64,000 bases of DNA from Nanobdellota archaeon (GCA_038046385.1 JBBSWH010000006.1:129009-193008); one strand, 5' to 3'. Numbered from the stretch's first letter, positions 1,646 through 44,859 are shown. The notes: generated by a model from the letters alone, not told the origin. A program made the numbers and translations.

Positions 1646-2021
1646 TACCAATATTGTAATATCGGCATTTATCTCTCCATTTGGGGCTGCAGCGCAGATA
1701 TTTGAGATGTTTTTGGAAGGCAATATCATAAATTATACTTCTGAAGAGATACTCCAAGAGGCAGAAGAGGTTATTCACAGGCTAGAATTTACTGAGTATA
1801 TTGCTGATAAAAAATTCATGATTGATAATCTTAGAAAGTTATCATTGATTATAAATGTAACATCAAATGAAATGATTGTTAGGGAAGACCCTGCAGATGA
1901 TAAAATTGTAAATTGCGCTCTTGATGCCGGAGCAGATATTGTATCCTGGGACAATCATCTTCTTAAGCTGAAGAAGTTTAGGAATGTTAAGATAATTAGC
2001 CCGAAGGAGTTTCTTTTATGA
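1599..2021 (+). CDS. PIN domain (VapC-like) toxin
   Basis: VVLDTNIVISA...DPADDKIVNCAL...IVSWDNHLL acidic PIN motifs. Confidence 0.9.
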   Translation: MRQRYMHTEKRRVVLDTNIVISAFISPFGAAAQIFEMFLEGNIINYTSEEILQEAEEVIHRLEFTEYIADKKFMIDNLRKLSLIINVTSNEMIVREDPADDKIVNCALDAGADIVSWDNHLLKLKKFRNVKIISPKEFLL

Positions 2022-2072
2022 AAATAAAGGATATTTCACTTTCTCAAAGGCCAAGGGAGAGGATGAAGAAGG
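2018..2072 (+). pseudogene. radC: N-terminal remnant of radC (JAB domain protein)
   Basis: ATG overlaps the PIN stop (ATGA) and reads MKIKDISLSQRPRERMKK, the characteristic RadC N-terminus. Similarity ends where the convergent DUF2075 gene stops. Confidence 0.65.
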
Positions 2073-3959
2073 TTAATTTTTTATATTAAATTTGTCTAAT
2101 CTTTCTTGTATATAATTACTCAAATTTTTATCGCAGCAATAAACATAACACCCTTTTTGCCCCCTAGTCATTAAAGTTCTATAAGTATTTTTTATAATTT
2201 CATCTGCAATTTTATTTGCTTTATCTTGATTTTCTTTTGCTATCCTTTTAATTCCTTTTAGCGACTGGTCTGTTTTTGCACGTTTTGTATAATCAGTTAT
2301 AATCTTTCCATTTTCATATCTTAAATCCAATCCTATGATTATTCCTACATAATCAAACTCCAATCCTTGAGAGGTGTGAATACACCCTATTTCGTTTATA
2401 GATTCTTTATCTATTGCCCAAGTTGTTGTGTTACCTAAATTCCAACTCATTGAAAAATTGAATTCTTTAATGTTTATGTCATGAACTGTACTTTTATTTT
2501 TACCTTCCATATTCCAATCCCAACAATATCCTGCCAATAATCTAGATTTATTATTTATATTATTTTTTTCTATAATAATATTTTTTAGCTTATTTGGGTC
2601 ATCAACAACTTTAAATTCATACTCTTTTTCAAATCCATCTGAGTTAGCAGTTTCTCGTATTCCTAACAAATCATCTAACCATGCTAAGTATCCGTCTGAT
2701 CCATTACATCTAAACTGGGAATTTAATTCAAGAATTTTAACCTCAGCATCAAACAAAGAAGTGTATTTTATTATTTCTGATTTTCTTCCTATATCAAAAA
2801 TATCTACTTTTTGCCCTTCGTCAATAAAAAATACACTAAACTTTGAAGCATTAATAATTTCTTTTATTTGATTCTCTCCTAAATTTTTGAATAATCCTGA
2901 CTTTTCATTCAGCCTGTGTGCTTCATCTACAACTAAGGCATCAAAAACGTTTTTATCACAATCGTGAAAGAATCCAGAACTCTTGAATAAATTATCTATA
3001 TGGGATTTAGTGGTTGTTCCTCTTAATTTAGAAGCATAAACATTTCTAGGTGCAGAATTCTTTGATATATAATGCACAACCATATCCTTACTAGTTAATT
3101 TGACTAATAAATTAACAGCCAAAACTGATTTTCCAGTTCCTGGTCCGCCTTCAACTATCATCACTCTTTTTTTGTGGTCATTAAAGGACTTAAGTGCCAT
3201 AGACATTACTTCTTCATAGACTACTTTTTGGTCATCTATCAGGGTAAACTCATCTTTTCCTTTCAATAAATTTACTAATGAATCTTGTAGGGTTTTTGAT
3301 GGCTTTAACCTACCATGATCTATCTGATACAGGGAATATTTATTGTCACCATATTTTATGAATTTAGAAATAAATTTTCTAAGTTTCAAAACTTCTCCTT
3401 TTGTGTATATTGGGGCTTTTTCAATATAATAAGAATATATTGGATCTTCAATTTCTGGATTTTTCTCCCTATCGAGATTATGTAAGAAAGCGCAAGGGTA
3501 AACCCCAATATTCTCTTTTTGAACGTTTTCATTAAAGTCTTTGATTAGATTATGATAAGACCAAACTTGATAGGATGGGTGTGTTGATTCGTGAAGTCCC
3601 TTTCCCAATGGAGTCATAACTATTGCGTCTTTCCCTTCTACTTTGTGTACTTCATCCCATCTTTTTAATTCTATTATAACTACTAGATTTGATTTGTTTT
3701 CATCTTTACCAGAAATAATAAAATCAACTCTTTTACTGGTTGATGGGATACGAAATTCAATAGCTATCCCACAACTATTTGGGATTTCTTCTGCTTGAAC
3801 CACTTTATACATATATTGCATAGAATCTGACCAAGAACTTATCTCTTTTTTGGATATGTTTCCTATTTTTTGTTGATAATTTGAATATATCTCATCTGAT
3901 ATTGTATCATTTAACACAGAGCTACAAAATTCACTTTTTGTTCCTTCATATACTAGCAT
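2073..3959 (-). CDS. DUF2075 (Schlafen group 3-like) SF1 helicase with N-terminal nuclease-like domain
   Basis: Walker A GGPGTGKS, DEAH, QFRC, IHTSQGLEFDY, YRTLMTRG; N-terminal E...D...ELK nuclease-type motif. Confidence 0.85.
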   Translation of the reverse strand: MLVYEGTKSEFCSSVLNDTISDEIYSNYQQKIGNISKKEISSWSDSMQYMYKVVQAEEIPNSCGIAIEFRIPSTSKRVDFIISGKDENKSNLVVIIELKRWDEVHKVEGKDAIVMTPLGKGLHESTHPSYQVWSYHNLIKDFNENVQKENIGVYPCAFLHNLDREKNPEIEDPIYSYYIEKAPIYTKGEVLKLRKFISKFIKYGDNKYSLYQIDHGRLKPSKTLQDSLVNLLKGKDEFTLIDDQKVVYEEVMSMALKSFNDHKKRVMIVEGGPGTGKSVLAVNLLVKLTSKDMVVHYISKNSAPRNVYASKLRGTTTKSHIDNLFKSSGFFHDCDKNVFDALVVDEAHRLNEKSGLFKNLGENQIKEIINASKFSVFFIDEGQKVDIFDIGRKSEIIKYTSLFDAEVKILELNSQFRCNGSDGYLAWLDDLLGIRETANSDGFEKEYEFKVVDDPNKLKNIIIEKNNINNKSRLLAGYCWDWNMEGKNKSTVHDINIKEFNFSMSWNLGNTTTWAIDKESINEIGCIHTSQGLEFDYVGIIIGLDLRYENGKIITDYTKRAKTDQSLKGIKRIAKENQDKANKIADEIIKNTYRTLMTRGQKGCYVYCCDKNLSNYIQERLDKFNIKN

Positions 3960-15132: not shown

Positions 15133-15738
15133 TTACTCCAGAACTTTTAATCTTCCCGGGCGTATTTCAAACACATCTCCGTTCTGCAGAAGGGAGTTTA
15201 TCATCTTTTCAGCATCCGGATTCTTTGATTTTGAAATAACATCCTCAAAAGAAACTCCGTCTCCAGTGTCAAGGTTCCTTATGATTGTGTAAACATCTTC
15301 TTTCGGATTTAATTCGGCTTTAACTTCAGCTTCCGGAACATCTTCAACAGAAATAATTTTATTTTTTCCCAACTCAATTTTTCTTAAGTTAATCCATTCG
15401 GGATTGCTGATTTTTTTAACTATTTCAGGCATGATATATCTTTCATTGTTAAATTCACGGATTCTGCCGACAACAAGAACAATATCCCCGATGTCTATGG
15501 AAGAAAACATAACAGTGCTTTCAAAAGCACGAAGGTTTATTTTTCCAGTGCCATCATCTATCACCATTGACATGCTGTCCCCTTCCGGCTTGTAGACTGA
15601 ATAAGCTATCACATTGACTCTGGCAACATTATTTCCATTCAGAGAAATCTGGCCGTCTGAAATGGAAGAGTTAACAATATCAGAAATAAGAACCTTGTAA
15701 GCCACTTGCCTTTGGAATTTGTTATCTGAATCGGCCAT
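15133..15738 (-). CDS. RPA32-like OB-fold/winged-helix ssDNA-binding subunit
   Basis: RVNVIA...IDDGTGKI...VVGRIREF OB fold; C-terminal GDVFEIRPG winged helix; directly downstream of mcm. Confidence 0.8.
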   Translation of the reverse strand: MADSDNKFQRQVAYKVLISDIVNSSISDGQISLNGNNVARVNVIAYSVYKPEGDSMSMVIDDGTGKINLRAFESTVMFSSIDIGDIVLVVGRIREFNNERYIMPEIVKKISNPEWINLRKIELGKNKIISVEDVPEAEVKAELNPKEDVYTIIRNLDTGDGVSFEDVISKSKNPDAEKMINSLLQNGDVFEIRPGRLKVLE

Positions 15739-42982: not shown

Positions 42983-43021
42983 CCACTGGACACTGGACAT
43001 CCTCGCATGAACTATATAAAG
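42983..43021 (+). promoter_or_regulatory. Conserved promoter box (copy 3, upstream of the radA operon) with duplicated CACTGGA
   Basis: ccactgga-cactggacatcctcgcatgaactatataaag. Confidence 0.7.
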
Positions 43022-43511: not shown

Positions 43512-44534
43512 ATGATGGAACAGGAATTAATGGAAGTAGAAGTTGAAACAAAAACAAAGAGAAAATTAAAGATGGAAAAAGAAGAAAAAACAGAAAAAGT
43601 TCAAAAGACAATCTATGATCTTCCGGGCGTAGGGGCAGCAACAGCTGAAAAGTTAATTGCGGTTGGATACACGGATTTGATGAGCATAGCAGTTGCGAGC
43701 TCAGGGTCTTTGATAGATGCAACTGGCATGAGCGATGCTGTTGCAAAGAAGCTTATTGCAGTTGCAAGATCTTCCTTGGAAATGGGATTTGAAACAGGAG
43801 AAGAACTTCTAAAGAGAAGGGAAAAAGTGCTAAGGCTAAAGACCGATAGCAATGCCCTAAACATGCTGTTAGGCGGCGGCTTCGAGACCGGAGCAATTAC
43901 AGAATGCTTTGGTGAATTTGGCTCGGGAAAAACACAAATAGGCCACGTATTGGCTGTTAAAGGACAGTCCATTGAAAAAGATGCAGTCGTTGTTTACATC
44001 GACACTGAAAATACATTCAGACCAGAAAGAATAATCCAGCTTGCAAAAGGGCAGGGATTGGATGAAACCGAAGTCCTAAAAAATATCAAGGTTGCAAGAG
44101 CATATAACTCGGACCACCAGATGCTTTTGGCTGAAAAGGTTGAAGACTTAATCAAGAAACAAAATATGAACGTGAAATTAATCGTAATAGATTCTTTGAC
44201 CGCTCATTTCAGGGCAGAGTTCATCGGACGTGGAACATTAGCAGACAGGCAGCAGAAACTGAACAAGCATCTGCATACATTAGCAAAATTGGCCGATATG
44301 TACAATTTGTGCGTTTATGTAACCAATCAGGTTATGGCAAAGCCGGACATGTTCTTCGGCGACCCAACACAGGCAATTGGCGGGCATATTGTTGCGCATG
44401 CATCAACATTCAGGATTTATCTGAGAAAAGGCAAGAAGGGAACAAGAGTTGCAAAATTAATAGACTCTCCTAACATGCCGGAAGCAGAGTGCGGATTCTA
44501 CGTTGATGAAGGCGGAGTAAAAGACATAGAGTAA
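43512..44534 (+). CDS. radA: DNA repair and recombination protein RadA
   Basis: N-terminal HhH (LPGVG), [38 protein letters not shown]. Confidence 0.98.
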
Positions 44535-44608
44535 GTGCGCCTTAAGCACATATTTTTTTCTTTTATTTTTTTAATTTTTAATAATTGGAAATATAAAGAA
44601 AAAATAAA

Positions 44609-44646
44609 GGCCGCACAAATCCGGCTAACAGGAGATTGATACCCTC
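44609..44646 (+). repeat. Degenerate copy of the 5' half of the adjacent tRNA
   Basis: ggccgcacaaatccggctaacaggagattgataccctc vs tRNA ggtcgcacaacctggcagtgcgggagattgataccctc; last 16 nt identical. Confidence 0.65.
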
Positions 44647-44693
44647 AATAAATACAAATGAAACACACTATATAAATTTTTCCTAATAGCAAT

Positions 44694-44809
44694 GCCGCGG
44701 TCGCACAACCTGGCAGTGCGGGAGATTGATACCCTCCTGTCCGCAAGGATGTCTGGGTTCAAATCCTACACAGAGGTTTGGCTGTTGGGTGAGAATCCCA
44801 GCCGCGGCG
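44694..44809 (+). tRNA. tRNA with Ser-type body, anticodon GAT and a 32-nt intron at 59/60 (44764-44795)
   Basis: Acceptor GCCGCGG/CCGCGGC + G73; D-stem GCAC/GTGC; anticodon arm GGAGA-TTGATAC-CCTCC; long variable arm GTCC-GCAA-GGAT; T-arm CTGGG-TTCAAAT-CCCAG after removing a BHB-bounded intron; TATA at 44669-44676. Confidence 0.85.
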
Positions 44810-44859
44810 CTTTCTCATTAAACAAAACCTTTTTAATGATACATCTGATAGTGTAACTT

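Follow-up and report, generated by a model that had tools for sequence, protein, structure and literature searches.

A gene for a serine-type tRNA that carries an isoleucine anticodon, accompanied by a candidate antisense RNA gene on the opposite strand, was identified in a 64,000-nucleotide (nt) stretch of DNA from a Nanobdellota archaeon (GCA_038046385.1, JBBSWH010000006.1:129009-193008). This whole stretch is referred to as the window, and positions are counted from its first letter. Direct reading of positions 44694-44809 of the plus strand revealed a class II tRNA gene with the anticodon GAT, the discriminator base G73 and D and variable arms resembling those of tRNA-Ser. On this reading, it is a genuine accessory tRNA gene with a tRNA-Ser-derived body and a GAU anticodon, whose predicted mature product requires splicing at a bulge-helix-bulge (BHB) intron in the T loop. 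A partial copy of the gene's own 5' half, situated upstream, looks like a separate RNA gene of the minus strand, and we put the chances at about even that the two form a module in which a toxic, mis-decoding serine-type tRNA is paired with its own antisense RNA. Expression, splicing, serine charging, RNA pairing and physiological role are all deduced from DNA.

An initial sequence-only reading of this DNA had described a class II body, G73, an acceptor beginning with GCCG, the anticodon loop TTGATAC, an A31-C39 mismatch and a BHB intron, all of which were found as described. The acceptor stem of 7 bp pairs GCCGCGG (44694-44700) with CCGCGGC (44802-44808), followed by G73 at 44809; the 4-bp D stem is GCAC/GTGC, and its loop carries GG. 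The anticodon stem GGAGA/CCTCC contains the G30-C40 pair and the A31·C39 mismatch (44725/44733), the 15-nt variable arm has a stem of 3-4 bp and a GNRA-type loop (GCAA), and the 5-bp T stem is CTGGG/CCCAG. By eye, the BHB motif consists of a 4-bp helix of TTCA (44758-44761) with TGAG (44790-44793), each followed by the 3-nt bulge AA/T with predicted cleavage at the slash; the outer helix is the T stem, and the inner one is CC(T)A/TTGG. Among relatives, the place of the intron is constant and its sequence variable. Archaeal non-canonical BHB introns are similar in that the motif lies outside the anticodon loop, at position 59/60, and the intron found here is otherwise ordinary (on endonuclease types, see PMC5829648).

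Once the intron was cut out by script, ARAGORN drew an 85-nt class II cloverleaf with the anticodon gat and one mismatch, A31·C39, in the anticodon stem. In the raw 64-kb window, ARAGORN returned no match and Rfam none at gathering thresholds; at permissive settings, Rfam returned for 44540-44840 nothing beyond chance matches below threshold and a partial tRNA match of 13.9 bits. Both tools overlook the gene because the intron at position 59/60 interrupts the T loop and not the anticodon loop. The minimum-free-energy fold of the unspliced gene did not yield the cloverleaf. An alternative register that reads TGA from the anticodon loop was rejected by eye, as it places C at position 33 in some relatives and fails across the family.

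The gene belongs to a family. A search of 43 genomes of the genus, which are incomplete metagenome bins whose close kin are not independent, with a pattern that left positions 34-36 free gave 37 matches in 26 genomes. Thirty-six of these matches are family genes and one is another serine-type gene (CTC). The family anticodons are GAG (10), CAG (7), GAT (6), AAG (5), GAC (5), GAA (2) and TAG (1), so that all 36 have the form N-A-N and none is a serine anticodon. When the same pattern was run over the order (401 genomes, 257 genera), it matched beyond the genus a single family gene, with CAG, from a sister genus, a pair of GAT genes from a different family within the order, a pair of GAA genes built on a second scaffold, and five true tRNA-Ser genes. 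In a tree of 77 columns, from which the anticodon loop was left out, the family forms a clade apart from the true tRNA-Ser genes (support 97/91), within which at least 12 anticodon changes occurred among 24 genes. Loop positions 32, 34 and 36 changed 7, 9 and 7 times on this tree, and positions 33, 35 and 37 not once. Loci that follow the same small open reading frame (ORF) in different species carry GAT, AAG or GAC. The acceptor, D, variable and T arms and the BHB helix are intact in every family gene examined. An anticodon that is labile yet confined to N-A-N argues against neutral decay, and the case made at the outset against long decay is strengthened by the invariance of U33, A35 and A37 in 24 genes in which their neighbors change 7-9 times. 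In the main texts of the openly available literature, we found no description of archaeal serine-type tRNAs with such anticodons.

It was also observed that many family genes (L096, L099, L100, L104, L105 and L106) carry a second insert, placed after the variable arm and before the T stem; in L101 it lies in the 3' region of the acceptor. This insert is a palindromic repeat of about 43 nt, near-identical across genomes, and is for these reasons probably a mobile intron or a miniature inverted-repeat element.

The upstream partial copy with the same GAT, which had been reported from the sequence, is indeed present: a 16-nt word at 44631-44646 is common to the gene and the copy, with the GAT at 44638-44640. 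The idea of a mere relic is not supported: the copy tracks the anticodon of its gene and looks like a separate gene of the minus strand. Each of the 38 modules (in 27 genomes) with enough upstream sequence contains a partial copy of its own gene's 5' half, about 35-47 nt upstream of the gene in all but two, where it lies farther off. The 7-nt loop of the copy equals that of the neighboring gene in 36 modules; in the other two it differs once, at position 32, and the anticodon is the same in all 38. In a subset of 24, the anticodons match in 24 of 24 cases, a value reached by none of 100,000 shuffles (maximum, 14). Identity between copy and gene (n = 24) amounts to 23-24 at positions 32-40, 20 at position 41, 17 at position 42 and 4 at position 43, and it fades gradually in the 5' direction.

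Nested tRNA genes were noticed on contig C15 of the same genome (~15240-15480, minus strand). There, an outer Ser(CGA)-like gene with its own correctly spaced TATA box, an intron in the anticodon loop and the acceptor GCCACTG/CAGTGGC has its T loop split by an insert of ~140 nt that holds a complete, intron-less inner Ser(CGA) gene. The idea that the partial copy is an integration scar or the outer exon of such a nested gene was rejected, given the fixed spacing of ~35-47 nt in most modules and the lack of a matching 3' part downstream of the gene.

On the minus strand, the copy has the layout of a small RNA gene (Table 1): a 5' hairpin (44631-44646), a GC hairpin (44610-44625) and an oligo-T stop (the complement of the A-run at ~44594-44608). 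The 7-nt loop of the 5' hairpin is the exact complement of the tRNA anticodon loop. The minus-strand TATA box that would serve as its promoter has the consensus TTTAWATA, is present in 37 of the 38 modules with purine-rich sequence ahead of it, and stands 22-23 nt from the sharp edge of the copy in 28 of these 37 (range 18-24), with non-conserved sequence in between; the transcription start of the candidate RNA is deduced solely from this geometry. A T-run of at least 5 follows the GC hairpin in 23 of 23 modules. For the 4-bp stem flanking the loop, 79 of 92 cells pair on the minus strand (32 as G·U) vs. 49 of 92 on the plus strand (2 as G·U). These two counts leave out locus L035 because its 43-nt copy is a recent duplicate. 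When the genome was searched with a generic pattern for an RNA gene of this layout, only its three modules matched. For the duplex predicted to form when the RNA's first 16 nt meet the anticodon arm, the mean energy is -24.7 kcal/mol in cognate and -12.6 in non-cognate combinations; with the arm of the ordinary tRNA-Ile, the value is -5.9. By sequence alone, the copy thus has the marks of an independent small-RNA gene, namely a spaced promoter, a 3' stop and a structure kept on the minus strand. Motifs of C/D-box guide RNAs were not seen in the candidate RNA by eye. No antisense RNA to a tRNA anticodon was found described in the literature covered.

Table 1. Positions of the proposed module and its context in the window.
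Feature	Position	Strand	Basis
radA, followed by its own hairpin and T-run terminator (context)	43512-44534	+	ORF; E = 4.6e-109 to archaeal Rad51/RadA chain 1pzn_A
Upstream plus-strand promoter remnant ATATAAAG	44591-44598	+	alignment of the two own copies and class A modules
Candidate antisense RNA, ~45 nt (ends inferred)	44600-44646	-	module alignment, stem pairing, T-run, genome-wide pattern
Copy of the anticodon loop, TTGATAC, within the partial copy (GAT at 44638-44640)	44636-44642	.	loop comparison over 38 modules
TATA box TTTATATA, proposed antisense promoter, with a purine-rich stretch upstream on the minus strand (44677-44684)	44669-44676	-	22 nt to the edge of the partial copy
tRNA exon 1: acceptor 5' strand, D arm, anticodon arm, variable arm, T stem 5' strand, T loop to position 59	44694-44763	+	direct reading; ARAGORN after in-silico intron removal
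Anticodon GAT in the loop TTGATAC with U33 and A37; decodes AUC/AUU	44728-44730	+	direct reading; ARAGORN after intron removal; paralog; contigs of other studies
BHB intron, 32 nt, tRNA position 59/60, T loop	44764-44795	+	BHB motif; position kept in relatives; removal restores the T arm
tRNA exon 2: T loop from position 60, T stem 3' strand, acceptor 3' strand, G73	44796-44809	+	direct reading; ARAGORN after intron removal

The same TATA box had been taken for an intact promoter of the tRNA gene, an assignment that its distance makes unlikely. Read on the plus strand, the box ends 17 nt before the tRNA, and the corresponding distances in the three family genes of this genome are 17, 17 and 6 nt. 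In contrast, in the 15 ordinary tRNA genes of the genome that have a TATA box, the box ends 24 nt before the 5' end in nine and 23-30 nt before it in all. The 22-23 nt measured on the minus strand of the modules come close to this value of 24.

In the proposed two-gene module, an antisense RNA gene built from an old partial copy of the 5' half of the tRNA would produce an RNA of ~45 nt from the opposite strand, transcribed away from the tRNA from a start ~47 nt upstream. Its 5' hairpin loop would be complementary to the anticodon loop, with complementarity extending to the 3' strand of the anticodon stem. Transcription of the tRNA itself would begin at a promoter convergent with the antisense promoter and yield a precursor whose long leader includes the sense copy; given that RNase P RNA is present in the genome, such a leader could be removed. 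By pairing with the tRNA and with the same sequence in its leader, the antisense RNA would mask the anticodon or lower the output of tRNA and would restrain a potentially toxic mis-decoder until the balance shifts. A reason for such a brake may be seen in the yeast tRNA-Ser variants with the anticodon GAU or GAA, which are lethal when they accumulate and are rescued by extra cognate tRNA (PMC6125640). In its most specific form, to which we would give only a tentative place below the general proposal, the module would consist of RNA only, with a serine-charged tRNA as a "toxin" at Ile codons (Leu, Val or Phe codons in relatives) and the ~45-nt antisense RNA as an "antitoxin" or switch that kisses the anticodon loop and the leader. 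Convergent promoters would decide between the two, and proteome-wide mistranslation on demand would be brought about by the cell or by a selfish element.

Several observations weigh against the proposed antisense brake. The window copy has lost the element CCACTGGACAT and the normal promoter spacing, both of which are retained by the paralog on contig C1; given this loss, the window gene may be the weaker of the two copies. The A31·C39 mismatch and the lack of a promoter at the usual distance and of an oligo-T directly after the tRNA fit weak expression, and a T5 run separates the partial copy from the tRNA gene. Structural co-variation within the candidate RNA is weak, as the observed values were attained in 39 of 500 and in 47 of 500 shuffles; RNAalifold gave only 3 conserved pairs for it. 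The partial copy of L035 is a fresh, perfect 43-nt duplicate without a T-run, and together with a contig of sequencing run X6, which mixes letters of the two own copies, it indicates that gene conversion occurs, so that the likeness of the anticodons could persist without selection. Conversion nevertheless fits poorly with an identity limited to 11 nt, 4 nt of flanking homology and a copy whose hairpin, stop and promoter, all its own, appear conserved. Pattern matches are lacking in 17 of the 43 genus genomes, which means that the module is either dispensable or often unassembled. In a second, unrelated family, two loci examined by eye likewise have an upstream partial copy, a minus-strand TATA box ~21 nt before it and a T-run after it; this copy spans the D and variable arms and has no anticodon arm, and masking of the anticodon therefore cannot be the general mechanism. 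An antisense partner seems to accompany mismatched serine-type tRNAs more generally, with the targeted part of the tRNA differing. The second family comprises the loci L094 (G118) and L095 (G010), and G215 by pattern only. Its members are class II genes with the anticodons GAA and CTC, G73, the T stem GCGGG/CCCGT and a T-loop intron.

Among the alternatives, one accepts the tRNA as real and serylated and lets the upstream copy act in the sense direction, as a 5'-leader decoy for a factor that binds the anticodon arm or as a processing signal, the minus-strand box being incidental. We regard this as unlikely, although it draws on genuine features of the plus strand. In class A modules, a standard promoter of the plus strand (CCACTGGACAT with a TATA box) lies 28-37 nt ahead of the partial copy, so that transcription would start a few bases before the copy, and the ~30 occurrences of this promoter type in the genome stand before other genes. 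Class B modules directly follow the stop codon of a 53-aa zinc-ribbon ORF with the same promoter type, and RNase P RNA is available for leader removal. These features are opposed by the plus-strand stem, which is broken by A·C mismatches in keeping with the lower pairing count given above, and by the oligo-T run, the GC hairpin and the TATA spacing of 22-23 nt, all of which are sensible only on the minus strand. The sense-leader and antisense readings are compatible, because both RNAs would pair with each other.

Regarding the promoter type itself, CCACTGGACAT is found, sometimes doubled, ~8-12 nt upstream of a TATA box and in constant orientation at the places mentioned (e.g., near 42984, C6:171992). 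It has the appearance of an upstream promoter element or an operator that is specific to this lineage and serves protein-coding genes. The 53-aa ORF (CxxC...CxxC; C-terminus ...FMxxMxIxGWR) ends exactly at the A-run of class B modules, as in L060 (1654-1815, on G000 C5), and homologous ORF ends were observed in L031, L037, L068, L072, L096, L098 and L101. It had no match in Pfam, NCBIfam or PADLOC.

A further alternative treats both the gene and the partial copy as DNA that is selfish or drifting and takes no part in translation; the tRNA would be silent, unspliced or uncharged, and repeated gene conversion between close direct repeats would maintain the likeness of the two copies. The fresh duplicate in L035, the hybrid X6 contig, the patchy occurrence of the module by pattern, the want of a usual tRNA-type promoter or terminator and a much enlarged intron in the family copy on contig C5 all speak for it. 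It has to contend, however, with the constancy of U33, A35 and A37 beside changing neighbors and with tRNA arms and BHB helices that are intact throughout the family genes examined. Moreover, conversion would find little to work on, since identity is restricted to positions 32-42 and homology on the 3' side amounts to only 4 nt, and the copy has gained a conserved hairpin, a T-run and a promoter geometry of its own. Drift of this kind is thus improbable in our view.

The toxicity supposed in the antisense reading depends on which amino acid the tRNA carries. The serine-type body put forward from the sequence was borne out by comparison with the genome's own tRNAs. After splicing, the tRNA shares 62, 63 and 63 of 84 bases with the three tRNA-Ser species, compared with 54 for Leu(GAG) and 50 for Ile(GAT). 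The ordinary Ser(CGA), Ser(GGA) and Ser(GCT) all have, by our reading, G73, the same D-arm design and a 15-nt variable arm with the same kind of stem and GNRA-type loop, and the tRNA studied here agrees with them in G73, the G30-C40 pair and these two arms; lacking a serine anticodon (NGA/GCU), it is no ordinary Ser isoacceptor. The ordinary tRNA-Ile(GAT) of the genome is 75 nt long and has a short variable loop, A73 and a normally placed promoter. The tRNA studied here has neither the class I body nor A73, and its agreement with that tRNA-Ile is limited to the anticodon and A37. It also lacks the A73 and the Leu-type D loop and variable arm of archaeal tRNA-Leu, as the ordinary Leu genes (TAA, CAA, TAG and GAG) have A73, a GCGGGGG-type acceptor, an 11-nt D loop and another variable arm. 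The notion, prompted by the prevalence of NAG anticodons, that the family is the lineage's ordinary tRNA-Leu with an odd discriminator was rejected, since those A73 genes exist in a different scaffold.

The genome encodes a single seryl-tRNA synthetase (SerRS), of the type with the Seryl_tRNA_N domain. A review names G73 and the G30-C40 pair as strong elements of recognition by bacterial-type and archaeal SerRS and describes G73 as an antideterminant of the leucyl-tRNA synthetase (LeuRS) in H. volcanii (PMC9976931). Since SerRS is blind to the anticodon and G73 would exclude an archaeal LeuRS, the mature tRNA would most likely carry serine and compete with the ordinary tRNA-Ile at AUC/AUU codons. 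ATT and ATC make up 4.3% of the 306,656 codons in long ORFs. Charging instead by a synthetase that matches the anticodon or by LeuRS, here with isoleucine, would make the tRNA a harmless extra isoacceptor without mistranslation. Such charging is favored by the GAU anticodon with A37 and by the Leu anticodons of most family members (23 of 36), and the CUG-decoding tRNA-Ser of Candida is reportedly charged with two amino acids. We nonetheless rate it as quite improbable, since G73 is present in all but one of the family genes examined, unlike the A73 of the genome's own Leu and Ile tRNAs, and acts against an archaeal LeuRS, and since the body is closest to tRNA-Ser. In addition, orthologous loci switch among Leu, Ile, Val and Phe anticodons on a constant body, which fits an enzyme that ignores the anticodon. 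Reassignment of AUC/AUU (CUN in relatives) to serine, for which the mere existence of serine-type tRNAs with such anticodons is the sole support, can be dismissed almost entirely: the ordinary tRNA-Ile(GAT) persists, the same locus bears different anticodons in close relatives, and the isoleucines of RadA, translated with table 11, align by eye with I, V, L and a few charged residues of solved archaeal RadA chains and never with S or T. Given that RadA reads normally and the ordinary tRNAs are present, the code is standard and the serine-type GAT tRNA is an extra.

An error of assembly or sequencing in a tRNA-Ser(GCT) gene has nothing beyond the one-letter distance from GCT in its favor and next to no probability, as the letters agree in two copies of this genome and in three other studies, a true Ser(GCT) gene sits elsewhere in the genome, and GAT is also seen in five further genomes of this genus and, within the order, in another family. 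The second module copy, on contig C1, is 92% identical over 213 nt, with an identical exon 1, a different intron and the same GAT. Confirmation from raw reads had been called for, and contigs from runs X5, X6 and X12 span 44728-44730 with zero differences; the contig of run X8 ends at 44725, short of the anticodon. The X6 contig (window 44627-44900) has C1-type letters at 44664-44666 and a C1-type upstream hairpin, followed by a C6-type downstream flank, which suggests exchange between the two copies or strain variation.

The presence of separate Ser(GCT) and Ile(GAT) genes, likewise raised at the outset, also bears on the origin of the gene. Its variable arm is, as had been stated, one substitution from the GATTGCTA of tRNA-Ser(GCT). 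That statement is literally correct, yet a recent GCT-to-GAT mutant is not what it reveals, since the real Ser(GCT) differs in its stems, acceptor and introns. By our reading, two introns (29/30 and 37/38) interrupt the true tRNA-Ser(GCT), and a single one, near the anticodon, interrupts the true Ser(GGA); ARAGORN mis-calls these genes (C5:78857-78995 and C13:9322-9444) as Gln(ctg) and Ala(ggc).

With regard to genomic context, the genome amounts to 1.28 Mb (85% complete, 38% G+C) and has many intron-bearing tRNA genes; ~24-26 tRNA genes were recovered by standard tools. The C1 paralog (positions 1777-3209 of region L058, G000 C1:114371-117579) has a gene for a type II DNA methyltransferase (PADLOC, E = 2.8e-46) at a distance of ~1 kb and two unassigned ORFs adjoining, and the region may be a restriction-modification neighborhood. 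A 173-aa ORF beside this copy had no match in Pfam, NCBIfam or PADLOC. The AAG family member on contig C5 (G000 C5:68067-68234) is located ~2.2 kb from the genome's only SerRS gene (~70400-71660), on the same strand.

Other tRNAs whose body and anticodon disagree are naturally retained, such as the nematode nev-tRNAs and the tRNA-Ser(CAG) of Candida. These tRNAs, like tRNAProX of bacteria, have other scaffolds (Pro or Leu) and other hosts than the tRNA described here, and we know of no antisense partner for any of the three. In Candida, CUG has been reassigned to serine with some ambiguity, whereas here the ordinary tRNA persists. Bacterial tRNAProX is naturally retained as well, with a body and anticodon that disagree on another scaffold and in another host (PMC10404621). 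The allo-tRNAs are similar to the family in being natural, accessory and patchily distributed and in combining serine identity with variable non-serine anticodons (Ile, Leu, Val and Phe) (Mukai et al., Nucleic Acids Res 2017, PMC5389517). They are bacterial, however, and have 8/4 or 9/3 acceptor/T-stem architectures, and the accessible text mentions no antisense partner (PMC5389517). In contrast, the tRNA described here is archaeal, with a 7-bp acceptor and a 5-bp T stem, a T-loop BHB intron, N-A-N anticodons only and a candidate antisense partner that co-varies with it. The yeast tS(GAU) and tS(GAA) (PMC6125640) and the human tRNA-Ser-AGA G35A (PMC12993449) follow the same logic, in which a Ser body with a foreign anticodon leads to misinsertion of Ser, and these are laboratory constructs or rare alleles; the present genes form a conserved natural family with apparent selection for A35 and a candidate neighboring RNA gene. 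The tRNA resembles allo-tRNAs, nev-tRNAs, tRNAProX and engineered tRNA-Ser in its working and is a member of none of these groups.

For the proposed brake, the closest parallels are hok/sok, CopA/CopT and ColE1 RNA I/II of bacteria, in which a short, structured antisense RNA has a hairpin loop complementary to a loop of its target; in hok/sok and CopA/CopT, the target is the leader of a harmful or dosage-sensitive RNA. In type I toxin-antitoxin systems and plasmid copy control, the target is an mRNA or a replication primer. Here, it would be a tRNA, with complementarity that reaches the mature anticodon loop by way of a duplicated segment. No toxin ORF was found within the module, which thus lacks the small-protein toxin mRNA of type I systems; by analogy, the module may work like a type I toxin-antitoxin system without being one.

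Natural tRNAs with mismatched body and anticodon are rare and bear on how the genetic code changes and on deliberate mistranslation. The genus keeps serine-type tRNAs only for codons with a middle U, with frequent swaps of the anticodon, each apparently with a matching antisense RNA. Because the T-loop intron defeats standard tRNA finders, similar systems may hide in other DPANN genomes. If the proposed module is real, regulated mistranslation or addiction systems would gain a new class, and a tRNA anticodon would for the first time be known as the target of an antisense RNA. If the pairing is real, it would show how a cell can afford a mis-decoder of a kind that is lethal in yeast on accumulation, and it would provide a 7-nt loop-loop code that changes with the anticodon and could be borrowed as a switch for suppressor or mistranslating tRNAs.

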